Origin: an uncultured Chloroflexia bacterium
Lineage (GTDB): Bacteria; Chloroflexota; Limnocylindria; Limnocylindrales; CSP1-4
Length of the DNA: 64,000 nt
Reading direction: 5' to 3'
Assembly: GCA_963752475.1 (NCBI GenBank)
Contig: CAVVYR010000008.1
Span: 320,001-384,000, forward strand
Part shown: positions 16,116 through 37,426 of the stretch, piece after piece
Position numbering within the stretch: position 1 is the stretch's first letter
How the letters are laid out: every line of letters begins with the position of its first letter
The notes under the pieces: model-generated
Told to the model about the DNA's origin: nothing
Seen by the model: only the letters and a program-made list of their open reading frames with translations
The model's database searches: none
Position numbers and translations under genes: made by a program

Positions 16116-16257
16116 CCTCGCCTTCGGGGTCGGGTGAAATCCCCTACCGGTGGTCGGTGGAACCGCTCCGCCAGCCCACGACCCGCGCACCATTTCGAGT
16201 CGCGGTGGATTCCCTCGCAGGGAGCCGACGGTCATAGTCCGGATGAGAGAAGGAGAG
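16116..16257 (+). ncRNA. FMN riboswitch (RFN element)
   Basis: CTTCGGGGTCGGGTGAAATCCCCTACCGGTGGT...AGCCCACGACCCG...GAGCCGACGGTCATAGTCCGGATGAGAGAAGG; extended -10 TGCTATAGT at 16086-16094; hairpin GTGTGGCC-GGA-GGTCACAC covers the RBS. Confidence 0.95.
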
Positions 16258-16387
16258 AGGCGCCACCGATGCGCCAGCCGCGTCGGTGTGTGGTCGCTCG
16301 TCGAGCGCGACCGACCCGTTTCGACGGGACCAGTCCGCTCGCTTCTCTTCTTGATGCCTCGATGGTGTGGCCGGAGGTCACACGTAG

Positions 16388-25590: not shown

Positions 25591-27037
25591 TCCCCGTGCA
25601 TTGATGCTCCAGGGCACGGGCTCCGACGTCGGCAAGTCCGTGCTCGTGGCAGGGCTTTGTCGTGCGCTGGTCGACCGCCGGCTGACCGTCCGTCCCTTCA
25701 AGCCCCAGAATATGTCCAACAACGCGGCGGTCGCGGTCGAGGGTGGCGAGATCGGCCGGGCGCAATGGCTCCAGGCGGTGGCTTGTCGGGTGCCACCGAG
25801 CGTTCACATGAACCCCGTGCTCATCAAGCCGGAGAGCGACATCGGGGCGCAACTCGTCGTGCAGGGCCAAGCGGTCGGCACATCCATGGCGGCCGACTTC
25901 AACCGCAAGAAACCCGAACTGTTCGCGAAGGTGCTGGAGTCGTTCGAGACGATCGCATCCGAGGCGGACATCGTCGTGGTCGAGGGCGCCGGCAGCCCTG
26001 CCGAAGTGAACCTGCGCGAGGGCGACATCGCCAACATGGGCTTCGCCTTGCCCACGCAGACCCCGGTCGTGCTCATCGGCGACATCGACCGCGGAGGGGT
26101 CATCGCGTCGCTCGTGGGTACGCACGCGATCCTGCCGCCAGAGGAGCGTGCGCTGGTCCGCGGGTTCATCGTCAACAAGTTCCGCGGTGACGCCGCGCTG
26201 TTCGACGAGGGCATGCGCATCATCGAGGACCGCACCGGTTGGGCCGGCTTCGGCGTCGTGCCCTTCCTGCCGACAGTGACGCGTCTGCCGGCGGAGGACG
26301 CAGTGGTCCTGGAGGGCCCTCGGGCGCGCGGGGGTTCGCGCTACGTGATCGCGGTCCCGATGCTCTCGCGCATCGCCAACTTCGACGATGCCGACCCGCT
26401 TCGTCTACACCCGGAGATCGACCTTCGGTTCATCCCGCCCGGCCGGGCCATTCCGTCAGAGGTGGACCTCATCATCATCCCCGGCACCAAGTCCACCATC
26501 GCCGACCTGCGATTCCTTAGGGCGCAGGGCTGGAGCGCGGACATCGCGGCCCACCACCGGGCCGGCAAGCCCGTCATCGGACTCTGTGGTGGCTATCAGA
26601 TGCTGGGCACGGTGGTAGCCGATCCAGAGGGTACTGAGGGCCCGCCCGGTGAGGAGCCGGGTCTGGGGTTGCTGGCGGTGAAGACGGTATTGGAGTCCCC
26701 CAAGACCGTGCGTACCGTCAGCGCGCTCGAGGCGGACTCGGGTCTCGAAGTGCCGGGCTACGAGATCCACTGCGGGCGGACCGAGGCCATCGGGGCGATC
26801 GAGCCGTTCCTCAGTGTCGACGGGGAGGTCGTCGGTCTGCGCTCCGCTGATGGTTTGGTCTACGGCGCCTACGTGCATGGCCTCTTCCTCGACGACCGCT
26901 TCCGGAGCGAGATGCTCGCCCGGCTGGGGATGCCGGTGGCCGCGGGGCTGTCCTATCAGGCGTCGGTCGAGACCGCACTCGACGAGCTGGCGGCGGCGCT
27001 GGAGGAACATCTCGACATCGAGGCCATGCTCGGCTGA
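25588..27037 (+). CDS. cobQ: Cobyric acid synthase, fused in frame to the IS630 C-terminus
   Basis: LMLQGTGSDVGKS, PFKPQNMSNN, EGAGSPAEVNL, IANFDD, GLCGGYQMLG, YVHGLF. Confidence 0.93.
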
Positions 27038-27094
27038 CCGCCCTACACTCGGGGCTAACCACTGGGACATCACATACGACAGAGGAGACGCGCG

Positions 27095-27301
27095 ATGGGC
27101 GTCATCATCATCCGGGAGATGGTCGGCAGCAGCCCCGAGTCATGGAGCGCAGCGGCCGCCGATGCCGTGGCGCGAGCGGCTTCGACCGTTCGCAATATCC
27201 GCCAGGTGGAGGTCGTGCGCCACACGGCGCGGGTCGACGAGGATCGCATCACCGACTACGAGGTCGAACTGAAGATCTTCTTCGAGTACGAGGGCACCTG
27301 A
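27095..27301 (+). CDS. Dodecin family flavin-binding protein
   Basis: 68 aa; EMVGSSPESWSAAA...AASTVRNIR...YEVELKIFF; GAGGAG RBS. Confidence 0.85.
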   Translation: MGVIIIREMVGSSPESWSAAAADAVARAASTVRNIRQVEVVRHTARVDEDRITDYEVELKIFFEYEGT

Positions 27302-27359
27302 CCGCACTTTTCCACACCCTGGTAAGCGTGGGATGAGTAGGCATCGCGATGATGCGGCC

Positions 27360-30300
27360 ATGCCCTATCAGTCGCTGACTCCCGAACAAGATCGAGCACG
27401 TCCAGAGGCGCCTCCGGCGACGGTGCCTGGGCTGAACACGCCCGAGCCACACCCGTCCGGCTTCGCCATCATCGGCAGCAAGATCGGTCCGGCTGCGCCA
27501 GCGCGCTCGATCCTGGCTCGACCCAGGTTGGTCGACTGGTTCGACCAGCACGCGCGAGCGCGCGTCGTGTTCGTCTCGGCAGAGGCCGGGTACGGCAAGA
27601 CCACGCTCCTTGGCGAGTTCGCGAACCACACACGGGACCGGGTCGTCTGGTATCGGCTGGAACGCTCGGACGGCGACTGGATCACGTTCCTCAGCTACCT
27701 CGTCGCCGCGCTACGCGACGTCTGGCCGGAGTTCGGCAAGTCGACCGAGGCGCTTCTGCGCAACGTCGCGGCGATGGGCTCCTCGCGCGAGGTCGTCCTC
27801 GCACAGTTCCTCGCGGATCTGAGCTCGGCAGAGGCCAGTCGCGTCGCCGTGATCCTTGACGACTACCACCTCGTCGGCGAGTCGCCGGACGTGCGCATGA
27901 TCGTGAGCCGGATGCTGGAGCGCGCGCCGGAGGGCATGTACTTCGTCCTCTCCGGCCGCAGCGTACCGATGCTGTCGGTCGGCCGTCTACGGGGACAGGG
28001 TCGCGTCAACGGCCTGAACATCGATGACCTGCGGTTCACGCTGTCGGAGATCGAACAACTGTTCGCGACGACGTATGGGCTACCCCTCGACGGTCGAGCG
28101 TGTCGCCTGATCGCCGAGAAGACGGAGGGATGGGCGGCCGGACTACAGCTTGTGGCTGCGTCGATCGCGGTCAGCCAACCTGATGAGGTCGCCGAGTTCC
28201 TGGCTGCGCTCAATGGTGCGACTGGTCCCATCTATGACTTCCTCGCCGAAGAGGTCCTGACGCGTCTCGCGCCGGAGACGCAGCGGGTGCTGATGCATGC
28301 ATCGTTGGTGGAACGCGTGCAGACGGACTATGTCGCCGTCGCTCTCGAGGCAGGTGGCACGCCAGTGGAGTCATCCGTCATCCAGGCCTCCCTGGATAGG
28401 GCTGAATCGCTTGGATTGCTCGGCGTGCGCAGTGAGGCCGCTCGCGGAATGCGGATGCAAGCGCTGTTCCGCGAGTTCCTCGAGGTCCACCTGGAGCGGG
28501 AGGTGGCGCCCAAGACCATCCGGCAGATGCACCAAGCGATCGCGCACGCCTCCGAACAGGACGACTGGCTGATGGCGGCGCGTCACTTTGCCAAGGCGGG
28601 TTGCCACGACGATTCGATGCGCGTCATCGGCTCGGCCGCGGGCGAGGCACTTGGAACTGGTGCCTGGGGAGCTGCGGTCGAGATCGTGGACTCCATGCCG
28701 GCGACGGAGCCGCCACCGGCCGTGAAGGTCATTCAGGCTCGCGCACTCATCAGTGATGAGCACCCGGAAGCCGCGGTCGAGGTCCTGTCGAGCATCGATC
28801 GCACGAACCTGAGCCCCGAAGAGCGCGGCCTCGTCGGTCTCACATGGGCTGCCATCCACCACATCAACGGCGAGACCGAGTTGCACAAGGGTGAGATTGT
28901 CCCAATCGCAGATGACGAGACGGTTCCGGCGTTGTTGAGAGACGTTGGTCATTGTTGGCAGCTGATGCTCGAAGCGGCAACCGGGGAAAGCATCTCGGAC
29001 GCCGTGACTGCACTCCGGCGTATGGCCGTTGAGCAATCCAAGCATGACCTCCACTACTTCGCAGGCGTCACCCTGCACAATGCTGCGACCGGCGAGCTCG
29101 CCCGCGGCAACTACGGTGATGCACAAGCATTGGCGAAGGACTCGGTGGCACACCTGGCGCGAACTGACGAGGGTGCCTCAATCAGCTCGTCTACTCGATC
29201 GTTGCAGGCGCTCGTAGTCGCGGAGCTCGGAGATCTGGAGGAAGGGCTTCGGCTTTCCAGTGCGGCCGCGACCGGTCCGGAGGCGGCCGCCGACGCCCTA
29301 GCGGACGCCGCGTATCTCCACGCAGTGTGCGGCAGAGGACACCAAGCCCGGACTCTGCTGTCCAGGTTCGAGCGCGGCGACGCGAGATGGGCTCGAGACC
29401 TATCGAGCAAGGCCGCCGGCTGCTATGCGAGGTTCGCGCTGGCGATGAGCGACGGCGCTACAGGCGACGCAGACCGAGCGCTAGCCGACCTCGACGAGTT
29501 GACGCCGGTCGACTTTGACACTGAGACGCGTCGAGCAGTGCTTGCTGCAACGCTGGCGGTGGCCGCACAGGACCCGGCTGCGTCAACCATCCTGCACACC
29601 GCCAAGGAGGTTGTCGCACGCCAGAACGCATGGCGCTGGATGATGCGCGTACGCCTTCTCGACGCCGTTCTTCAGCGTGACGGCAAGAGTCTCGCCCTCT
29701 GGATCACGGAGGCTGAGACCAATTCCGCACTGTCGGTTCTTGAGCTCGCTGACGCGATTGTCACGGCGGTGGGTGCTCTGGCTTCGATTCCGGAAGCTCT
29801 CGAACGGTCGGTCTTGCGAGAGCCCAGACGGTGGATAGGAGCTCTGACGCGGCAGGTGCAGGGACCTCCGAGTGAGGATGCTGGAGCAGCGGCAGCCATG
29901 ATCGCCAAGTTCGGTACCGCCGAGGACGCTGCCGTCCTTCGTGACTACGAGCGAACTGCAACCGGAAGGCCGCGTCGGCGAGGACTGGCGACGCAACTCA
30001 TCCGGAGAGTCAGCCCGACAGTCCGCGTGCACGACCTCGGCCTAACGAGCTACGAAGTTGGCGAGCGCATCGTTCGGCTGACGCAGACACGCCGGAAGAC
30101 AGCTGCGCTCCTCCTCTACTTGGTGACACGCCCGGACCTGGCCGCGAACCGGGAACAAGTGATGGAAGCTCTCTGGCCTGACCAAACGCCGAAGTCTGCT
30201 CTCAACAGCCTCCACCAGACCATCTTCTTCCTTCGCCGTGAGCTTGAGCCCTGGTACGAAGACGGTGCGACTGCCGACTACGTGCACATGGACACCGAGC

Positions 30301-30758
30301 TCGTGTTGCTCGACCCAGACCTGTTCCAAGTCGACAGTGTCGCGTTCGCTCGCCAGTCTGCCGACATCGTTGGAACAACGAGTGCCGGGAGCCGAGGCCC
30401 CGAGATGCTTGCCCTATATCGAGGCCACTTCGCGCCAGAGTTCGAGTACGAAGAGTGGGCTAGCGAGTGGCGAACGCATCTCCACACGAGCTACCTCCAC
30501 TTGGCTCACGCTACCTCAACCGCCCTGATCCACGAGCGCCGATACGGCGAGGTAGTCGAAGTGTTGACGCCTGTTGTTGCACTGGATCCGACTGCATTTG
30601 AAATCCGAGGGGCCCTCGTCGGATGCCTTGCGGTAGCTGGTGCGCGCGATGCCTCGGTCGCGCACTACCGAAGCATGGCGGCGGCCCACGAGCGCGAGCT
30701 CGGGCTGCCCGCGCGCCCGTACGATGAACTTGTCAGATCCGTCAGTTCTATGCCCTAA
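27360..30758 (+). CDS. MalT-like STAND ATPase / TPR / winged-HTH-BTAD (SARP-type) transcriptional regulator
   Basis: ARPRL, Walker A AEAGYGKT, Walker B ILDDYH, LRFT, TEGWAAGLQL, DFLAEEVL; C-terminal REQVMEALWPD...SLHQTIFFLRR and LYRGHF..EFEYEEWA. Confidence 0.88.
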   Translation: MPYQSLTPEQDRARPEAPPATVPGLNTPEPHPSGFAIIGSKIGPAAPARSILARPRLVDWFDQHARARVVFVSAEAGYGKTTLLGEFANHTRDRVVWYRLERSDGDWITFLSYLVAALRDVWPEFGKSTEALLRNVAAMGSSREVVLAQFLADLSSAEASRVAVILDDYHLVGESPDVRMIVSRMLERAPEGMYFVLSGRSVPMLSVGRLRGQGRVNGLNIDDLRFTLSEIEQLFATTYGLPLDGRACRLIAEKTEGWAAGLQLVAASIAVSQPDEVAEFLAALNGATGPIYDFLAEEVLTRLAPETQRVLMHASLVERVQTDYVAVALEAGGTPVESSVIQASLDRAESLGLLGVRSEAARGMRMQALFREFLEVHLEREVAPKTIRQMHQAIAHASEQDDWLMAARHFAKAGCHDDSMRVIGSAAGEALGTGAWGAAVEIVDSMPATEPPPAVKVIQARALISDEHPEAAVEVLSSIDRTNLSPEERGLVGLTWAAIHHINGETELHKGEIVPIADDETVPALLRDVGHCWQLMLEAATGESISDAVTALRRMAVEQSKHDLHYFAGVTLHNAATGELARGNYGDAQALAKDSVAHLARTDEGASISSSTRSLQALVVAELGDLEEGLRLSSAAATGPEAAADALADAAYLHAVCGRGHQARTLLSRFERGDARWARDLSSKAAGCYARFALAMSDGATGDADRALADLDELTPVDFDTETRRAVLAATLAVAAQDPAASTILHTAKEVVARQNAWRWMMRVRLLDAVLQRDGKSLALWITEAETNSALSVLELADAIVTAVGALASIPEALERSVLREPRRWIGALTRQVQGPPSEDAGAAAAMIAKFGTAEDAAVLRDYERTATGRPRRRGLATQLIRRVSPTVRVHDLGLTSYEVGERIVRLTQTRRKTAALLLYLVTRPDLAANREQVMEALWPDQTPKSALNSLHQTIFFLRRELEPWYEDGATADYVHMDTELVLLDPDLFQVDSVAFARQSADIVGTTSAGSRGPEMLALYRGHFAPEFEYEEWASEWRTHLHTSYLHLAHATSTALIHERRYGEVVEVLTPVVALDPTAFEIRGALVGCLAVAGARDASVAHYRSMAAAHERELGLPARPYDELVRSVSSMP

Positions 30759-30849
30759 CCACCCGTACGTACTAGTACTTATAGGGAGCAGACCACCCCG
30801 TACCTAACCTTGCCGAAGCATCAGTCGGATGACTGAGGCTCGAGGTCAC

Positions 30850-30942
30850 GGGGCAACAGCCGTGAAGACTCAGAGGGCTCGAGAGAGGGGACCTCCGAGT
30901 TCACGATTTGCCCCCAAGCACACCGGGCCGCCACCCGGCGGC
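30850..30942 (+). ncRNA. Structured leader upstream of the peptide gene (65-nt GNRA-capped hairpin plus a short hairpin)
   Basis: Pairings GGGGCAA/TTGCCCC, CGTGAA/TTCACG, CTC/GAG, GAGG/CCTC, CTC-GAGA-GAG (30850-30914); GCCGCC-ACCC-GGCGGC (30927-30942). Confidence 0.5.
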
Positions 30943-30999
30943 ACGAAAGAAGGGGTAAGACATGGATCCCATCGCCCACACGAAGCCCTGGTAGCTGAG

Positions 31000-31092
31000 A
31001 TGCCTCGCATGTTGATGTCGAGGCTCACGTTGCTTTCGACTCTCGTACTCACTCTGGTAATCGCGGGCAGCGCGGGCATCCGGCCCATCTGA
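31000..31092 (+). CDS. Small hydrophobic peptide, putative signalling-peptide precursor (MPRMLMSRLTLLSTLVLTLVIAGSAGIRPI)
   Basis: Basic N-region, hydrophobic core and a short GIRPI tail; lies between the regulator and the HD-GYP/DUF5317 genes. Start uncertain: 31000, 31009, 31015, or 30962 if one base is missing. Confidence 0.65.
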   Translation: MPRMLMSRLTLLSTLVLTLVIAGSAGIRPI

Positions 31093-31125
31093 AGGGACTA
31101 GCGCACTCCTAGTACATATGTTGGA

Positions 31126-31167
31126 TGGGGAGTTGTCGGTATCAATCGTGATACTGACGACTACCCA
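31126..31167 (+). other. Intercistronic stem-loop between the peptide and HD-GYP genes
   Basis: AGTTGTCGGTATCA-ATCG-TGATACTGACGACT (two G-U pairs), closed by TGGG/CCCA. Confidence 0.55.
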
Positions 31168-31191
31168 GTTGGGACTCAGGAGTCGCGACCT

Positions 31192-32589
31192 TTGTCGAGA
31201 AACCTTCGGATACTTCTGACGGTCGTACCGATTACGGCTGTCGCGTTGCTCGCGGTTAGCCTGCGAGCTTGGCCCGTCGACTTCGGCGGGTCAGTTTGGG
31301 TTTGGTCAGGCCAAGGCGGTACCGTCGCTGTACTGCTCTTCTGGATCGCGACTACCCTCGTCGCTTCGATGTTTCCGGTGCATATGCCGCGTGGGCCAGT
31401 TGTCAGCGTGGCGACGGCCCCAATCATCGCTGCAGCAATCCTCGGGGGCCCGAGTTCGGCCGCCATCGTTGCCATCCTTGGAACTATTGAGCTGCGCGAG
31501 CTTCAAGGACGTGTACCTTGGTACGGCGTGGTGTACAACCACACATTCCCGGCGATTGCTGCGGTTCTGTCAGGAGTCCTGTTCCTCTTCCTCAGCGGTG
31601 ATGAAGGAATCGCAAGTCCAGTAGGCCTCGCTGCGGGTGTTGCGGCTGGAATCGTGTTCGTTGGGGTAGACACTGGCATGTCGTCGCTCGCCGTTGCCCT
31701 TCGCGAGGAGCGGCCGTTCGGCGCCGTCGTGGCCAGCGACTTCCGGTCATTCGGGATGAGTCTGGTCGGCCTTACGCCAATGGCGTGGCTCATGGCGCTG
31801 GCATACATGTACATCGGACCCCTCGTTGCGCTCGTGTTCGCTCTGCCTCTCTACACGACACGGGCTGCCTACAAGGCGGTCGTGGATATCCGCGAGATGT
31901 TCACGCAGACCGTCAAGGCACTCGCGTCGGCCATCGACGCCCGAGACCCCAGCACGAAGAAGCACTCGGAACACGTCTCGGGCATCGCCGTCGAGATCGG
32001 CCAAGCCATGAACCTCAGCGAGCCGGAGCTCGAGCAACTCGAATGGGCCGGCCTGCTCCACGACATCGGCAAGATCGGCATCCGCGACTCCGTCCTGCTG
32101 AAGCCCGAGAAGCTCAGCCGTGAGGAGCGCATCCTCATGAACGAGCACCCCGCCAAGGGCGAGGAAATCCTCAAGGACGTCGATCAGCTCGCCGCCGAGC
32201 GTCCGCTCATCCGCCACCACCACGAGTGGTACAACGGTTCCGGCTATCCCGACCGCCTCATCGGCGACGAGATCCCGCTACTGGCCCGCGTCCTCCATGT
32301 CGCTGATGCCTTCGAGGCCATGACCGCGTCGCGCCCCTATCGCCCGATCCCGCTGTCCGGGGCCGAGGCCTTCGAGGAACTGGAGCGCTACGCAGGGATC
32401 CAATTCGACCCCGACGTGGTGGAGGCCTTCGGCCGCACCAAGACCGCCCAGGAAGCCTCCGAGCCAATCGACGACGAGCCTGGGGAGCCCGAGCGGCAGC
32501 TGACCCCGGTCCCGACGCTGGGACAGGTCGCGTCGGCCCGCGCCAAGGCTACGTCTCTGCCCACGAGCTCCGCTCCCGCCGAACCCTAG
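31192..32589 (+). CDS. HD-GYP c-di-GMP phosphodiesterase with an N-terminal multi-TM sensor domain
   Basis: About 7 hydrophobic segments in the first ~225 aa; DARDPSTKKHS, LLHDIGKIG, HHHEWYNGSGYP, VADAFEAMT; AGGAG RBS before the TTG. Confidence 0.92.
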   Translation: MSRNLRILLTVVPITAVALLAVSLRAWPVDFGGSVWVWSGQGGTVAVLLFWIATTLVASMFPVHMPRGPVVSVATAPIIAAAILGGPSSAAIVAILGTIELRELQGRVPWYGVVYNHTFPAIAAVLSGVLFLFLSGDEGIASPVGLAAGVAAGIVFVGVDTGMSSLAVALREERPFGAVVASDFRSFGMSLVGLTPMAWLMALAYMYIGPLVALVFALPLYTTRAAYKAVVDIREMFTQTVKALASAIDARDPSTKKHSEHVSGIAVEIGQAMNLSEPELEQLEWAGLLHDIGKIGIRDSVLLKPEKLSREERILMNEHPAKGEEILKDVDQLAAERPLIRHHHEWYNGSGYPDRLIGDEIPLLARVLHVADAFEAMTASRPYRPIPLSGAEAFEELERYAGIQFDPDVVEAFGRTKTAQEASEPIDDEPGEPERQLTPVPTLGQVASARAKATSLPTSSAPAEP

Positions 32590-32678
32590 TCGGGAGCTTC
32601 CGAGCACATGGCGGACCTGCCCCCGCACCTTCCACAGGCTGACCGAGCCTGCGCGACAGCTCCGGGGGAAGCTGCCTG

Positions 32679-34658
32679 ATGCTCTTCGTCGCCGTCATCC
32701 TGGGGCTCGGCGCCGGCCTCCTGGTCGGCGGCCGCCTCAGCAATCTGCTGTCCGCTCAGCTTCGTTTCGGCGGGCTGATCGTCGGCGGCCTGATCCTCCG
32801 CGTCGCAACCCAGTGGGGCCTGGACCAGGGCATCGACATCATCGAGTTCCTGCGCGCCCCGCTCTTCGCCGCTTCGTTCGGCTTGCTAGTCGTGGCCCTT
32901 TGGCTCAACCGCGGGCAACCGGGTCTGCTGCTGGCGATGGTTGGCATCGGCGCCAACGGCGTGGCAGTCATGATCAACGGCGGCCACATGCCGGTGTGGA
33001 TGCCGGCGGTGGAACTGGCGGGCCTCAGCAGCGCAGACCTCAACCCCGCCTTCCACGTCCTCCTGCCCGATGAGTTGAACGTCGAGTTCCTGCTCATGGC
33101 AGGACCCTTCGGCGACATCGTCCCCATCGCCATCCCCTTCCTCTCCAACGTGATCAGCCTCGGCGACGTCATGCTCGCCGCCGGCGTGGGCTGGTTCCTG
33201 TTCTCGGCCGTCGCTCGTGGCTCGACCGACCCGGACGAGGGCGTGGTCTCCCTCTGGAGCGCCCGGCCGGAGGCCGAGGTCCGAGCCGCCATCTACACCG
33301 ACCGCGCCGGCATCCAGCGGCCCATCGTCGGCGGCTCCAGCATGGGCACCGGCCTTCGCCCGTCGGCGACATCCGGCGCGGAGGCAGCCCTCCCACCCAC
33401 CGACAAGACCGCCGCCGAGCGCATCCGCGAGCACCCATACGTCCGGCTCGCGCGCGACGCCCGCTTCTCCGCGTTCTGGCTGGCCGGCACCATCAGCGTC
33501 TTCGGTGATCGCCTCCACCAGATCGCGCTCGGCGTGATGGTCCTGGCCCTGACGGGCTCGGCCATGCAGACGGGCTTCGTCTTCCTTGCCGCCACGCTGC
33601 CGAACCTGCTGCTCGGCCCCATCGCCGGAACGTTCGTCGACCGCTGGGACCAGAAGCGCGTGTTGGTCGTCAGCGATCTCCTGCGCGCCGGGCTCGTTCT
33701 GGCCCTCCCCTTCGTCGTGGAGATCAACGTCTGGCTGGTCTACCCGGTGGTCTTCATCGTGACCACGGTCAGCATCTTCTTCCGCCCGGCCAAGACGGCG
33801 ATCCTGCCACGCATCGTCCGGCGCGAGGACCTGACGCCGGCCAACGGTGCCATCTGGACGGGCGAGACCCTCGCCGACATCGCGGGCTACCCGCTGGCCG
33901 GCGTGATCGTGGCCTCGCTCGGCCAGAACTTCGCGCTCGCCTTCTGGATCGACTCATTCACCTACATCGTCAGCGCCGTCCTGCTCGTGGGCCTCTCCAT
34001 CCCGCCGGCGGCGCGTGCGGTCGGCCCTCGTGTCTCGGGCGCCGTGGCCGCGTTCGTAGAGGAACTGCGTGAGGGCTGGCACTTCCTGCGCGGCGAGGTG
34101 ACACTCTTCCAGAACACCCTCGTGAGCGTGTTCGCGCAGCTGTCGGTCGGCGCCACGCTCTCACTGATGGTCGTCTATGCCGAGCGCACGCTGTCGGGCG
34201 AGATCATCCCATACCCCGAGAGCTACGCCGTCATCGAGGCAGCCATCGGGATCGGAAACCTGGCAGGCGGCTTCGTCGTCGGCGCCATCGGCGCTCGGCT
34301 ACGCAAGGGCTGGCTGGTCATCAGCGGCTTCGCGGTCATGGGCGTCGCCACCATCGTCCTCGGTCTGACCTCGAACGAACTGCTGGCCGTGGGCGCCGCG
34401 GTGGTCATCGGCATCTTCAACCTGGTCTACGTGATCCCTAGCCAGACGCTCTTCGCCGAGCGCACGCCCGAGGGCATGTTGGGCCGCGTCGTGGCCATCC
34501 GCTCGAGCATCGTGATGGGTGCGCTGACGGGCGCGATGGCCGTCGCTTCCGGCCTGGCCGACACCATCGATGCGGGCGTCATCATCGCCTTCACCGGCGT
34601 GCTCACCGTCCTCGCGGCGGTCGTCGCCGCATGGCTGCCGGCGGTGCGTGACGCCTGA
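32679..34658 (+). CDS. DUF5317 domain fused to an MFS transporter (MFS_3/DHA3-like)
   Basis: N-terminus GGRLSNL...WLNR...GANGVAVMINGGHMPV...H...GDIVPI...ISLGDV; C-terminal MFS with FWLAGTISVFGD, GTFVDRWDQKRVL..SDLLRA, LGRV. Confidence 0.85.
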   Translation: MLFVAVILGLGAGLLVGGRLSNLLSAQLRFGGLIVGGLILRVATQWGLDQGIDIIEFLRAPLFAASFGLLVVALWLNRGQPGLLLAMVGIGANGVAVMINGGHMPVWMPAVELAGLSSADLNPAFHVLLPDELNVEFLLMAGPFGDIVPIAIPFLSNVISLGDVMLAAGVGWFLFSAVARGSTDPDEGVVSLWSARPEAEVRAAIYTDRAGIQRPIVGGSSMGTGLRPSATSGAEAALPPTDKTAAERIREHPYVRLARDARFSAFWLAGTISVFGDRLHQIALGVMVLALTGSAMQTGFVFLAATLPNLLLGPIAGTFVDRWDQKRVLVVSDLLRAGLVLALPFVVEINVWLVYPVVFIVTTVSIFFRPAKTAILPRIVRREDLTPANGAIWTGETLADIAGYPLAGVIVASLGQNFALAFWIDSFTYIVSAVLLVGLSIPPAARAVGPRVSGAVAAFVEELREGWHFLRGEVTLFQNTLVSVFAQLSVGATLSLMVVYAERTLSGEIIPYPESYAVIEAAIGIGNLAGGFVVGAIGARLRKGWLVISGFAVMGVATIVLGLTSNELLAVGAAVVIGIFNLVYVIPSQTLFAERTPEGMLGRVVAIRSSIVMGALTGAMAVASGLADTIDAGVIIAFTGVLTVLAAVVAAWLPAVRDA

Positions 34659-34726
34659 CCCGGCACGCTTCCCCGCTCCCCGCGATAATCGACGGAACGC
34701 GAACGCCCCAGGGAGAGCTCCGCTAG

Positions 34727-35622
34727 ATGACCGACCAGAACAAGCCTGAAGACGCGATACCCGAAGAGGAGATGCCCGAGGAGTCTGTCGACGAGTCCGC
34801 TGAGGCCGAAGAGCCGGCGGAGGATGTCGTCGAGGAGCCGACTGAAGAGGCCGCGGCTGAAGAGGCCCCAGCCCAGACCGAGCCCGTGGCCGGGGCGACG
34901 ACCGCGGCTGCGTCGTCGACATCGACGAGCGGCCCGGAGGAACCTCCGTTCATCGATGATCAGGTCAGCAAGTGGTGGATCGGCATCATCATCGCGGTAT
35001 TCGCGCTGATCTTCGTCGTGGTCGTCCTGTTTGGCCGCGGTGGCTTCCTCGCGGACGTCTTCGAGTCGGACGACCCCACGCCTGAACCGACCATCGAGGC
35101 CACAGCGGAGCCGGAACCGACCGACGCGGAGGAGAGCACCGAACCGGTCGACGCCACCATCGAACCCTCCGAGGCGCCGAGCGAGGAGCCATCGGAAGAG
35201 CCGACGCCCGAGCCGACCGAGGAGCCCGCACCGGAGCCGACGCCCGAGCCCACGCCCGAGCCGACGCCCGAGCCCACGCCCGAGCCCACGCCGGAGCCGA
35301 CCGAGGAGCCCACGCCCGAGCCGACCGAGGAGCCGACCCGGAGCCGACCGAGGAGCCCACGCCGGAGCCGACACCGGAGCCGACGCCCGAGCCCACGCCC
35401 GAGCCGACGCCCGAGCCGACACCGGAGCCCACGCCCGAGCCGACGGAGGAACCGAGCATCGGACCATGCCCGACGATCGACCCTGAGGCCAGCCTCGACC
35501 CTGACGCGAGCGCCGACCCCGAGGCCACGGATGAGCCCGAGGTCCCGTGCTACACCGCAGAACCGTCCGAGGAGCCGGAAGTGTCCGAGGAGCCGGGGCT
35601 CACGGCCGAGCCGGCTGACTGA
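34727..35622 (+). CDS. Acidic membrane-anchored protein with (EPTP/EPTE)n repeats; frameshift at ~35339
   Basis: TM helix WWIGIIIAVFALIFVVVVLF; restoring the frame gives ...EPSIGPCPTIDPE...EPAD with stop at 35620-35622. Confidence 0.7.
35189..35455 (+). repeat. 12-bp tandem repeat (gagccSacSccS / gagccgaccgag), about 22 units
   Basis: Directly visible; encodes EPTP/EPTE. Confidence 0.9.
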
Positions 35623-35631
35623 CGTCATGGG

Positions 35632-36321
35632 GTGACCGACGGCTCTCCGCAGCACCAGGATCGCTACGCTGCTGCGCGCGCGGCCATGGTTCGCGACCAG
35701 CTTGAGTCACGTGGTATCCGAGACCGACCCACGCTGGCGGCGATGTCGGTGGTTCCACGGGAGGCCTTCGTGCGCGAGGAGCGTACGATCGATGCCTATG
35801 CCGACAGCCCACTGACCATCGGCCACGGCCAGACCATCTCGCAGCCATACATGGTCGCGCGGATGACGGCCGCCGTCGGGCTGGAGGATGCCGGCTGGCC
35901 TTGGGAGCGCACACGCCCATCGGTTCTGGACGTCGGCACCGGCTCCGGCTACCAAGCCGCGGTCCTGGCCGAGACGGGCGCTCGGGTGACTTCGATCGAG
36001 CGCGATCCCGACCTTGCGGCCTGGGCTCGCCGGAACCTCGCGAGGGCCGGCTACGACGTCGAGGTGCTCATCGGTGATGGCAGCGTCGGCTATCCGGCCC
36101 ACGCACCCTATGCCGCCATCGTCGTGGGCGCGGGTGCGCCCGCCATCCCTGAACCGCTGAAGGATCAGCTGGCCGAGGGCGGGCGGCTGGCGATCCCGGT
36201 CGGCGACCGCCGCTCGCAACGCTTGATGGTCGTCCGGCGGCAAGGTCGAGCTTTCGAGGAACGTGCGGTGGATCGATGCGTCTTCGTGCCGCTCGTCGGC
36301 GCTCACGGCCACGCCGGCTGA
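35632..36321 (+). CDS. pcm: Protein-L-isoaspartate O-methyltransferase
   Basis: VPREAFV, GQTISQPYMVARM, VLDVGTGSGYQAA, FVPLVG. Confidence 0.93.
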   Translation: MTDGSPQHQDRYAAARAAMVRDQLESRGIRDRPTLAAMSVVPREAFVREERTIDAYADSPLTIGHGQTISQPYMVARMTAAVGLEDAGWPWERTRPSVLDVGTGSGYQAAVLAETGARVTSIERDPDLAAWARRNLARAGYDVEVLIGDGSVGYPAHAPYAAIVVGAGAPAIPEPLKDQLAEGGRLAIPVGDRRSQRLMVVRRQGRAFEERAVDRCVFVPLVGAHGHAG

Positions 36322-36355
36322 AACCGGTGATGGCCCGGTGCTATCCTCGCCCGCG

Positions 36356-37426
36356 ATGACACACGTCTTCGTAGCCCCCCATCCGGACGATGTCGCACTC
36401 TCGTGCGGCGGCCTCGTCTCCAGCCTGCGCGAGCTCGGCCAGTCGGTGACGATCCTGACGGTCTACTCCGGTGGACCCGGCGACTTCGACCTCGCGGACT
36501 ACCAGCGTGAAGCCGTGGGCTTCGGCACCAAGACCCTGCACCCCGCGACCCAGGCCTTCAACCGCAGCAACATCGGTTCCGAGTACCCGGTGTCCACGGC
36601 CACCGGCACCGGCGCCCCGTGGGAGGCGGACCCCTCCCGGATCGACGCGACACAGGAACGAGCCAATACACAGGCCCGCCAGTTCTGGCAGCGAGCGGCC
36701 TGGTCTCGCAGCGCCAACGTCACCAACGACGCGCACGAGGACCGCCCCCTGCGCGACGACCTGCCCACGCACGGGACGCTCGAGCGCTTCGAGCTCGCAA
36801 GGGCTGATGCAACGACGCTACGCAAGGCGGAGGACGAGCGCTGGGCCTACTTCATCGAAGCCGCACTCGTGGACCTGGATCTGCCCGATGCGGTCCATCG
36901 CGGTTACGGCAGTGACGACGAGTTGCTGGGCCCGCCCCGCGCCGAGGACGAGATCCCGGTCGACATCCTGCGCCGCGAGATCCTGCGCCTGGAGCCACAG
37001 CAGGTCTACTTCCCGCTCGGGGTCGGCGGCCACGTCGACCATCGCCTCTGCCGCGATGCCGGCTTGGCGCTCCTGGAGGACGAGGCCTCCTGGGTCATGC
37101 CGGCCGGCGGGTTCGCCGGTCGCCTCTCCTTCTACGAGGACTTCCCGTACGCCTGGTGGAGTGGCTTCTCCGGCCCGTCCGACCTCGCCGGACAGGACAT
37201 CGATGTCCCTCGTGGGTTGGCTCTCGAGGCACGTTACGCCGACATCAGCGACCAACTCGAGCGCAAGGGCGCTGGACTGAAGATGTACGCGCGTGAGGTG
37301 GAGCGCCTGTTCGACAGCGAGCAGGGCATGCTCGATGCGGTCGCTGGCTACGCTGCGCGCGTAGCCGACAGCGGCGGGCTCGGCACCGGTGCTGCCGAGC
37401 GGTACTGGAGCGTCGTCCGCTCCTAG
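36356..37426 (+). CDS. PIG-L/LmbE family deacetylase
   Basis: APHPDDVALSCGG, R..ED, PLGVGGHVDH, YEDFPY. Confidence 0.85.
   Translation: MTHVFVAPHPDDVALSCGGLVSSLRELGQSVTILTVYSGGPGDFDLADYQREAVGFGTKTLHPATQAFNRSNIGSEYPVSTATGTGAPWEADPSRIDATQERANTQARQFWQRAAWSRSANVTNDAHEDRPLRDDLPTHGTLERFELARADATTLRKAEDERWAYFIEAALVDLDLPDAVHRGYGSDDELLGPPRAEDEIPVDILRREILRLEPQQVYFPLGVGGHVDHRLCRDAGLALLEDEASWVMPAGGFAGRLSFYEDFPYAWWSGFSGPSDLAGQDIDVPRGLALEARYADISDQLERKGAGLKMYAREVERLFDSEQGMLDAVAGYAARVADSGGLGTGAAERYWSVVRS

Follow-up and report, generated by a model that had tools for sequence, protein, structure and literature searches.

The window analysed here is a 64,000-nucleotide (nt) stretch of contig CAVVYR010000008.1 (positions 320,001-384,000, forward strand) from an uncultured Chloroflexia bacterium, and all coordinates below refer to it. 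At 32679-34658 on the plus strand lies a single open reading frame (ORF) of 659 amino acids (aa), in which an N-terminal domain of the family DUF5317 is joined to a transporter of the major facilitator superfamily (MFS). This report concerns that DUF5317 domain, its conserved pair of aspartates and a micro-protein co-inherited with it, which together with a neighbouring enzyme of cyclic di-GMP (c-di-GMP) turnover may form one membrane module. The DUF5317 domain occupies residues 1-180 (32679-33218, plus strand), as judged from Pfam, from alignment A1 and a count over 271 domains described below, and from the AlphaFold2 (AF2) model and the charge density of its loops. The Pfam match itself (PF17248) covers residues 27-174 with an E-value of 6.5e-20 and 72.1 bits against a curated cut-off of 25. 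Then follows a low-complexity cytoplasmic linker of about 80 residues (181-259; 33219-33455, plus strand); the predicted local distance difference test (pLDDT) value falls past residue 180, and the linker has no match in a Pfam scan of the 659-aa protein. The remainder, residues 260-659 with the stop codon (33456-34658, plus strand), is a 12-transmembrane (TM) MFS domain of the MFS_1/MFS_3, DHA3-like efflux type. In the same frame as DUF5317, MFS_3 matches residues 260-651 (E 5.5e-20, 71.7 bits, cut-off 27) and MFS_1 residues 267-607 (E 2.4e-27, 96.2 bits, cut-off 33.4). The top NCBIfam match is TIGR00900 'H+ antiporter' (E 1.4e-60), whose 205.6 bits lie under its cut-off of 319.6, so that the MFS subfamily assignment is approximate only; the matches after it are weak and of Mef/EntS/Tet(V)-type efflux. 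A prediction made earlier from the sequence of this window (hereafter the original prediction) had described DUF5317, a linker and a full MFS domain within one ORF, which the ORF call and the Pfam matches in one frame confirm. The strings on which it was built, GIGANGVAVMINGGHMPV (residues 89-106), GDIVPI (145-150) and NVISLGDVMLAAG (157-169), all lie inside this ORF.

The fusion is genuine and conserved, not an assembly artefact. An exhaustive search with residues 1-190 retrieved 1,219 relatives at E≤0.001 (cluster representatives). Among the 20 longest full-domain relatives scanned, 16 carry DUF5317 followed by MFS (10/10 and 6/10 in two batches), and the remaining four carry DUF5317 with a tail that holds no Pfam-recognised domain; the linker differs in length between these relatives, the MFS domain beginning at residue 213-339. 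DUF5317 was found in 92 of 301 Chloroflexota genomes, a tally that includes the unpublished genome G227. The match lies within an open frame of at least 600 aa in all 16 genomes of the window's family f1 (own genome G000 included) and in 13 of the 15 genomes of the sister family f3 of the same class; in Chloroflexota outside these two families, DUF5317 is a standalone protein of about 180-250 aa. Both domains share one frame in 18 of the 20 fused-type loci that were fetched (L064-L083), the other two being L074, where DUF5317 and MFS are in different frames, and L079, a divergent paralog. The same order with a linker of about 13 residues occurs in the Actinomycetota records L131, in a frame of 800 aa, and L153, which the contig end truncates; L121 shows it as well. 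L131:1160-3559 and L153:4462-5892 are Gaiellales-type fusions, and the fusion is thus wider than Limnocylindria. As for the window itself, a contig of public run X1, possibly the source sample, spans 32563-33662 with no differences, and contigs from other studies span 32901-33413 (X3) and 33320-33544 (X2). The contigs of these three runs cover DUF5317, the linker and the start of MFS with no indel listed inside the ORF. Contigs from the RNA library of run X10 overlap parts of the operon (31090-31636, 33100-33250 and others), and, since such libraries may contain DNA, they are not taken as a sign of transcription. In species genomes, DUF5317 was confirmed at 535 loci, including those of cultured Bacillus, Mesobacillus, Desulfallas and Symbiobacterium (the seven-sequence alignment A8); the control genomes of Thermus thermophilus and Thermotoga maritima were DUF5317-positive.

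Alignment A1, which comprises 47 DUF5317 domains picked for diversity and short tails out of about 200, is invariant at N93, M104, P105, D146, G162 and D163. In the full set of 271 domains, 234 of the 235 sequences that cover D146 have Asp there, S160, G162 and D163 are each kept in 221 of 221, and N93 is kept in 256 of 259; A1 is the better gauge of breadth because the larger set is dominated by two clades. Both aspartates singled out by the original prediction are accordingly near-invariant across the family. In the window, on the plus strand, N93 is encoded at 32955-32957, the NGGHMP motif corresponds to residues 100-105, D146 is encoded at 33114-33116, and the S160-L-G-D163 motif ends with D163 at 33165-33167. 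The AF2 model of residues 1-190 (pLDDT 95.4; predicted template modelling score 0.87) shows five TM helices, at 2-25, 31-49, 59-76, 83-99 and, as the last, 161-179, together with an extracytoplasmic region at 100-160 that contains strands 146-150 and 157-160. Lys plus Arg reach a density of 0.21 in loops 1 and 3 and in the C-terminal stretch, as against 0.06-0.08 in loop 2 and the big loop, and the N-terminus of MFS proteins must be cytoplasmic. Given the model, this charge density and the MFS topology, DUF5317 is assigned an N-out/C-in orientation with its conserved residues on the outer face. In the predicted constellation there, N93 lies within TM4 and NGGxMP where that helix ends, D146 opens a strand, and S-x-G-D163 is placed at the N-terminal end of the last helix.

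The signal peptidase LspA provides the reference for such a pair. According to the available text of PMC6952399, LspA combines four TM helices with a beta-cradle, and its catalytic dyad (Asp118/Asp136 in S. aureus) is positioned towards the outer side of the membrane, in a site lined by 14 conserved residues; the statement of the original prediction that the V-x-D and N-x-A-D aspartates of LspA are catalytic agrees with that text. The genome of the window encodes a canonical LspA (L001:1411-1971, PF01252 at 5.2e-33), LspA being tallied at 60/61 with the unpublished genome G038 included. In the model of this LspA (pLDDT 86.4), strands 137-145 and 148-153 precede helix 155-172, and the dyad D139/D157, with a spacing of 18, occupies the third position in strand 137-145 (D139) and in helix 155-172 (D157). 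In DUF5317, D146 is the first residue of strand 146-150 and D163 the third residue of helix 161-179, with a spacing of 17. On comparison of the two models, the local two-aspartate unit looks like the strand-hairpin-helix of LspA, and the rest of DUF5317 does not. From the register of the hairpin, the carboxylates of D146 and D163 are probably close to each other.

Two larger genes precede DUF5317::MFS on the plus strand. The first gene of the conserved cluster (27333-30758) encodes a STAND-type regulator with an AAA/NTPase part, a TPR-like middle and C-terminal Trans_reg_C and BTAD domains (Pfam BTAD at 2.5e-09, AAA_22, AAA_16), and a homologue lies upstream in 17 of 20 fused-type, 14 of 31 standalone and 17 of 34 further Chloroflexota loci. 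The second (31192-32589) encodes a membrane HD-GYP c-di-GMP phosphodiesterase, with a multi-TM, MASE9-like N-terminus (residues ~1-230) and an HD_5 domain at residues 243-409. Its Pfam matches are HD_5 at 7.6e-39, HD at 2.5e-19 and MASE9 at 0.0071, the last under its cut-off in the window and clearing it in the relative L087. The gap between the two genes contains a micro-ORF of 25-30 codons (31000-31092, plus strand; micro-ORF 2), for which the start may be at 31000, 31009 or 31015. It encodes a basic N-terminus, one hydrophobic helix, the small-residue motif IAGSAG and a four-residue tail, IRPI, before the stop. A regular expression describing a hydrophobic run, a small-residue motif, a short tail and a stop matches the regulator/HD-GYP gap in 16 of the 20 fused-type loci; L066 is the 17th fused-type locus with a micro-ORF, the variant in L074 is read through, and no micro-ORF is present in L070 or L079. 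At a genome-wide background of 0.022 matches per kb per strand (190 in 4.25 Mb), about 0.3-0.4 matches would be expected for 20 gaps versus the 17 observed.

Sequence analysis of the micro-ORF was carried out on 17 sequences, from the window and 16 loci, with L082 and L074 left out. All 17 end in (L/I)-(A/G)-G-G-A-(S/G/T) plus exactly four residues, the window reading I-A-G-S-A-G plus I-R-P-I. Their entropy by codon position (1.26, 0.79 and 1.62 bits) is a coding signature, and synonymous differences amount to 31% in frame versus 5% and 8% in the shifted frames. In the divergent strain of run X3, five of seven substitutions in the micro-ORF fall at third codon positions, and a 1-nt deletion converts TGA-A to TAA with the stop kept. 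Several micro-ORFs are preceded by GGAG-type Shine-Dalgarno strings. By eye, a micro-ORF was seen at 14 of 14 BTAD-type loci and at 12 of 15 other loci, those lacking it being of the GGDEF/GAF paralog type. Furthermore, 35 micro-peptides from five phyla align as one family, and a hidden Markov model (HMM) of them places a member next to the module in 49 of 80 cross-phylum loci, of which 29 had contributed no seed. Of 15,506 frames, a single one elsewhere was matched; it is in L148, 2.85 kb upstream on the same strand and just beyond the distance window. The family members, 25-48 aa long, have a basic N-terminal stretch and a single TM helix, a small-residue motif that is almost invariant (L-A-G-G-A, for example) and a tail of 3-12 residues; Pro directly follows the G-A motif in many of them. 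They have no conserved Cys, the motif positions being G/A/S, and hence no lipobox cysteine. DUF5317 is co-inherited with a micro-protein across at least six phyla. Three of eight micro-peptide sequences looked up are present in the protein collection as 'hypothetical protein' or unnamed, and the micro-ORF of the window was missing from it under the three candidate starts. Tandem duplicate copies of the micro-ORF were observed at L085:3628-3894, L106:4159-4470 and L171:3025-3224.

A putative twin, mini-ORF 1, lies just upstream (30962-30994, plus strand); its 10 codons, MDPIAHTKPW, are followed by a stop and preceded at 6-12 nt by the Shine-Dalgarno-like string GAAGGGG. By regular expression, 13 of 17 loci have an ORF of 8-10 codons ending in (K/R)-x-(W/F) ahead of the micro-ORF, with looser forms in L069, L077 and L080. 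The tail of this short ORF often matches the micro-ORF tail of the same locus. Neither of the two tiny ORFs of the window was in the protein collection under the starts tried. A recurring 'CTGGTA' upstream of micro-ORFs was considered as a regulatory hairpin and dismissed, since it encodes G-W-stop in mini-ORF 1. A 17-bp hairpin (31126-31167, plus strand), located after the stop of the micro-ORF and ahead of the HD-GYP gene, could set the ratio of peptide to enzyme expression. The Rfam matches 'mir-5856' and 'mir-504' are chance names, and the 'mir-5856' alignment marks this real hairpin. A complex prediction for the DUF5317 domain and the micro-peptide, run without controls, returned 'no answer' with a score of 0.02.

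The association with c-di-GMP enzymes extends well beyond the fused-type loci. An HD-GYP homologue lies directly upstream of DUF5317::MFS in all 20 fused loci. Of the 31 standalone loci, 14 have an adjacent HD-GYP gene, 14 a BTAD regulator and five an MFS gene ending 3-10 nt upstream, and 25 carry at least one of these three. In the 80 further loci, taken from species genomes of at least nine phylum-level groups, an HD-GYP-type gene stands beside DUF5317 on the same strand in 54, and in 45 of the 46 outside Chloroflexota; this count was made by jackhmmer with the catalytic domain, not locus by locus with Pfam. In the five standalone loci with an MFS gene upstream, the MFS and a MASE9-like HD-GYP form a single frame of about 850 aa. 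MFS is therefore tied to the DUF5317/HD-GYP set in three ways, as a fusion to DUF5317, as a fusion to HD-GYP and as a gene ending 3-10 nt upstream. The second type of fusion was observed in another Chloroflexota family (L089-L093, e.g. L090:4172-6727, minus strand), where a MASE9-like domain, HD-GYP and MFS_3 share one frame, followed by a standalone DUF5317 and an AI-2E-family transporter, with a micro-ORF upstream. An AI-2E-family transporter lies downstream of DUF5317 in five of 30 loci. The genome of the window also has a DUF5317 paralog, a standalone protein of 196 aa on contig C6 (L002:1423-2013; L094:6616-9212), which overlaps the start of a GAF-GAF-GGDEF diguanylate cyclase gene by 4 nt. 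In L097, two DUF5317 genes flank a GAF-GAF-GGDEF-type gene. At BTAD-type loci a conserved ORF of about 90-107 aa was seen just downstream of DUF5317 (L006:1986-2261; L010:1178-1450, minus strand; L025:2038-2361; and others), matching 'Os1348 family NHLP clan' (NF038399) at E 1e-6 to 6e-6 and 26-29 bits, with a cut-off of 40.

In relatives, the operon is also preceded by a riboswitch. Rfam detected the c-di-GMP-II riboswitch (RF01786) at gathering score upstream of the tiny ORFs in five of seven f3-type and six of seven f1-type loci scanned (53.6-68.3 bits). A lineage model built from 12 matches places the riboswitch in 19 of the 20 fused-type loci, seven of them outside the training set, with a weak match in L085; in the relatives it lies about 100-140 nt upstream of the micro-ORF. 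In the window, Rfam gave nothing at E≤10 on 30700-31250, and the best match of the lineage model on 26000-36000 with filters off reached 8.4 bits (E 0.71) and lies elsewhere. The intergenic DNA of the window (30700-31000) is unalignable with that of its closest relative. Given the missing match and this unalignable DNA, the aptamer seems to have been lost or replaced here.

The present findings enable us to propose a tentative model, in which DUF5317 would be an outward-facing intramembrane aspartyl peptidase, LspA-like in action and outside the LspA family, that acts on the micro-protein. We infer the peptidase role from the invariant outward aspartates and their local setting, and it gains support from the co-inherited, signal-peptide-like micro-ORF, which would be its dedicated small substrate. 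Type I signal peptidase is not known to cut before Pro, so that the Pro following G-A in many micro-proteins, provided that these are processed in the first place, speaks for an enzyme of their own. Initially, the micro-protein would be inserted N-in/C-out as the substrate of DUF5317, which would cut it at the small-residue motif in the outer leaflet. The products may be a short tail outside, a helix remnant in the bilayer, or both. Afterwards, the MASE9 sensor that the adjacent HD-GYP carries within the membrane might respond to these products and so tune c-di-GMP turnover, and the MFS domain might export the cytoplasmic twin mini-peptide or clear the products. Given the riboswitch in 19 of 20 close relatives, the module would be a c-di-GMP feedback device. 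A ligand within the membrane is also what the HD-GYP census preprint, in its available text, proposes for MASE9 (10.1101/2021.11.05.467447). A species-specific secreted quorum signal is unlikely, since the tails are too conserved. In its fullest form the model would have DUF5317 as a new convergent peptidase family whose cleavage yields the MASE9 ligand and which, with riboswitch, twin mini-peptide and exporter, makes up an undescribed peptide layer of c-di-GMP feedback in at least six phyla; this extended version we consider unlikely.

A number of observations weigh against DUF5317 being such a peptidase, the first being that its homology to any protease has no statistical support. The 659-aa protein has no PF01252 match in Pfam at E≤0.1. 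HHalign of A1 against A2, an LspA alignment of 33 of 34 sequences (L057, from an unpublished genome, was dropped, and no alignment holds a sequence of G227 or G038), gave a probability of 1.1%, and of 6.2% in a local re-run whose score of 23.8 is barely above the 16.4-22.2 of 27 decoys (2 reversed, 25 block-permuted). Among 53 matches of the AF2 model in the Protein Data Bank (PDB) at E≤10 there is no LspA chain, nor any presenilin or prepilin-peptidase fold above noise; none of the 53 reaches E≤0.001, the best having an E of 1.3 and TM-scores being at most 0.30. The positive control, a model of the LspA encoded by this genome, retrieves 6RYP, 5DIR and 6RYO at 4.5e-11 to 2.2e-10 with TM-scores of 0.64-0.83. 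Beyond homology, no micro-ORF is seen near the GGDEF/GAF-type paralog loci L094, L097 and L098, though the Asp pair is kept there, and 31 of the 80 cross-phylum loci are without a micro-ORF match, of which 18 had at least 1.5 kb of upstream sequence and 13 less. An aromatic residue of the tail, usually Trp, four to five residues past G-A, is conserved across phyla. A-G-G-A is a classic helix-packing motif, which together with the conserved tail fits a stable subunit at least as well as a substrate. Facing outwards, the two carboxylates and the Asn might just as well serve to bind a cation or a basic side chain. Finally, an outward-facing site leaves the attached exporter unexplained.

The main alternative, somewhat less likely than the tentative model, is that the module is a non-proteolytic membrane signalling complex. 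The micro-protein would then be a stable single-pass subunit or regulator, similar to MgrB or AcrZ, that packs via A-G-G-A on DUF5317, on MASE9 or on both, and the outward Asp pair would bind a ligand, a cation or a basic residue of the tail, DUF5317 relaying its state to the c-di-GMP enzyme and the transporter. Such a complex is in line with the HD-GYP or GGDEF enzyme beside DUF5317, with a small-residue motif typical of helix packing, with a tail and aromatic residue conserved rather than diversified across phyla, and with the GGDEF-adjacent paralogs that retain the Asp pair without a micro-ORF. However, two acidic residues, an Asn, a Ser and several Gly that hardly ever vary across phyla are what one would expect of a catalytic site more than of a packing interface, and the pair sits in a strand-hairpin-helix arrangement like that of a known aspartyl peptidase.

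An improbable alternative is that DUF5317 is an accessory or enzymatic domain unrelated to peptides, acting either as a cation/proton module that gates the MFS or as an enzyme on a lipid or small molecule of the envelope, with a product moved by the MFS or AI-2E transporter and sensed by MASE9. Transporters do recur around DUF5317, with MFS_3 fused or adjacent besides the downstream AI-2E genes, and Asp and Asn at the membrane boundary occur in ion-coupled and lipid-modifying proteins. Nevertheless, most DUF5317 genes have no adjacent transporter, and the cross-phylum linkage to the micro-ORF would go unexplained.

It is very improbable that DUF5317 is a true, extremely diverged member of the LspA family (MEROPS A8), serving as a second signal peptidase II for atypical lipoprotein-like precursors. 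The sole local alignment of HHalign pairs D146 with LspA D139 (V-x-D) and D163 with D157 (N-x-A-D); it is thus in catalytic register and above all 27 decoys. The local secondary structure is the same, and the L-A-G-G-A of the micro-proteins resembles a lipobox minus its cysteine. Against this stand the PF01252 and HHalign results, a Foldseek search without any LspA chain although its positive control works, five TM helices versus four and no beta-cradle motif. The invariant columns of A2 are D38, K42, N72, G74, F77, G123, N127, R131, V137, D139, N154, D157 and G163, onto which the 14 conserved residues given in the available text of PMC6952399 map. A1 offers counterparts only for the two Asp and possibly the Asn of G-x-x-x-N, and DUF5317 lacks most of the 14 active-site residues (the TM1 Asp/Lys, the cradle Asn/Gly, G-N-x-x-D-R, Val and Phe-Asn-x-Ala). 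The A1 profile found no LspA among PDB sequences at E≤10, only bacteriorhodopsins at E 0.61-2.3, whereas the LspA profile retrieves the PDB entries of LspA at 5.1e-40 to 1e-36. The candidate precursors are without the lipobox cysteine that LspA substrates require, and the genome already has a canonical LspA. The ESM Atlas gave no usable named cluster or named neighbour for DUF5317. Since every test of relatedness is negative or insignificant, DUF5317 is, by these profile and model comparisons, not a detectable LspA homologue or A8-family member, and its confidently predicted fold has no solved relative. The kinship with LspA implied by the original prediction therefore fails on the condition named with it, a predicted fold unrelated to that of LspA. 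What stands of its by-eye alignment is that GDIV and SLGD supply two conserved aspartates on the predicted outer face, in the register that HHalign also finds; descent from LspA is not supported.

Two candidate links to known proteases were rejected. BLASTP of DUF5317 against the genome's own LspA gave one 25-residue match (E 0.002 in a single comparison) between DUF5317 residues 10-34 and the G-N-x-x-D-R stretch; it was discarded because the matched residues of DUF5317 fall on loop 1 and the cytoplasmic end of TM1 and lack the Asp, and because HHalign does not recover it. S-L-G-D as the G-x-G-D motif of presenilin and prepilin peptidases has no fold support, the only PDB match to a GxGD protease in Foldseek being SPPL2a (9k92) at E 7.9 and TM-score 0.16, which is noise. 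As for the last alternative, that a frameshift or misassembly joined two genes into an artefactual fusion, its probability is negligible, for nothing was found in its favour apart from the single relative L074 with its domains in different frames, and 29 of the 31 genomes of families f1 and f3, 18 of the 20 fetched loci and some Actinomycetota share the architecture, with contigs from three runs crossing the junction without indels.

Downstream of DUF5317::MFS, the window contains a P/E/T-rich ORF of 302 aa (34727-35635) with an acidic N-terminus, one hydrophobic segment and a long repeat, for which a Pfam scan gave no family; weak homologues stand at the same position in L072, L075, L080 and L083. 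It is followed by a PCMT gene (35632-36321) and a PIG-L-like gene (36263-37426). A promoter and terminator scan of 30700-34900 gave nothing exceeding shuffles. A flavin mononucleotide (FMN) riboswitch (RF00050, 79 bits) was seen at 16116-16258 on the plus strand.

In summary, the module linking micro-proteins to c-di-GMP is undescribed and provides a testable candidate for a new membrane peptidase family. In the literature searched, which takes in neither subscription journals nor supplementary files, DUF5317 is unmentioned, and no paper combines at least three of c-di-GMP-II riboswitch, HD-GYP, small membrane protein, micropeptide and Chloroflexi. In the available text of the HD-GYP census preprint (10.1101/2021.11.05.467447), DUF5317, small protein and riboswitch each have no occurrence. 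DUF5317 is a widespread family, as its 1,219 relatives and 535 loci in species genomes attest. If the Asp pair is catalytic, it would represent a fourth structural solution for membrane aspartyl proteolysis, after LspA, presenilin/SPP and the prepilin peptidases, and, since its own substrate would be genetically encoded, the hypothesis is directly testable. Whatever the chemistry, unannotated micro-proteins are tied to c-di-GMP turnover through HD-GYP/GGDEF neighbours, the riboswitch and the fusions among DUF5317, MFS and HD-GYP, and the module offers a candidate source of ligand for the orphan intramembrane sensor domain MASE9.

Among known systems, LspA (MEROPS A8, PF01252; 5DIR, 6RYO, 6RYP) is the nearest in layout. 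Both proteins are small and polytopic with two conserved Asp, placed by prediction on the outer face in DUF5317, one on a beta-strand and the other at the N-terminus of the last TM helix at a spacing of 17 in DUF5317 and 18 in LspA. Both also have a conserved G-x-x-x-N on the preceding helix and a likely client that is a signal-peptide-like helix ending in small residues. They differ in that DUF5317 has five TM helices rather than four, none of the cradle motifs D-x-x-x-K, N-x-G-x-x-F and G-N-x-x-D-R, and an insert of about 40 residues that carries NGGxMP and separates the first Asp from the Asn helix. Neither its sequence nor its fold matches LspA, and its candidate client is without a lipobox cysteine.

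Peptidase-containing ABC transporters are fusions of a C39 peptidase to an ABC exporter, which handle a double-glycine leader with C-terminal cargo. As in these transporters, a putative processing domain and an exporter share one polypeptide here, with a small precursor encoded nearby. The 659-aa protein contains no C39 peptidase or ABC domain in Pfam and NCBIfam, its putative site faces outwards instead of the cytoplasm, and the precursor is a membrane helix with a C-terminal tail. The description of the fusion as the MFS analogue of such exporters is therefore only loosely apt, given the outward-facing putative active site, although the fusion to an exporter-type MFS is real. A further parallel is offered by operons with RF01786 and MASE9-HD-GYP, since the operon of the relatives starts with an RF01786 aptamer and encodes a MASE9-type HD-GYP; the window differs from them in having no detectable aptamer.

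MgrB-PhoQ and AcrZ-AcrB exemplify small single-pass membrane proteins that regulate sensors or pumps, and they share with the present module a membrane protein, here of 25-48 residues, encoded beside a polytopic partner, with a small-residue packing motif available. To our knowledge, their partners have no invariant acidic pair at the interface, and none is tied to HD-GYP or a c-di-GMP riboswitch. Finally, the Rgg-SHP and PlcR-PapR peptide signalling systems use the intramembrane protease Eep (a zinc site-2 protease), a dedicated exporter and an RRNPP regulator. The module is reminiscent of them in that a regulator gene is followed by a tiny hydrophobic pre-peptide whose C-terminal end would be active, and a membrane protease and an exporter would be involved. 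In the module described here, by contrast, the regulator is of the BTAD/STAND type and the candidate protease is of the Asp type with a new predicted fold; the tails are conserved across phyla instead of being strain-specific, and the output is a c-di-GMP enzyme.

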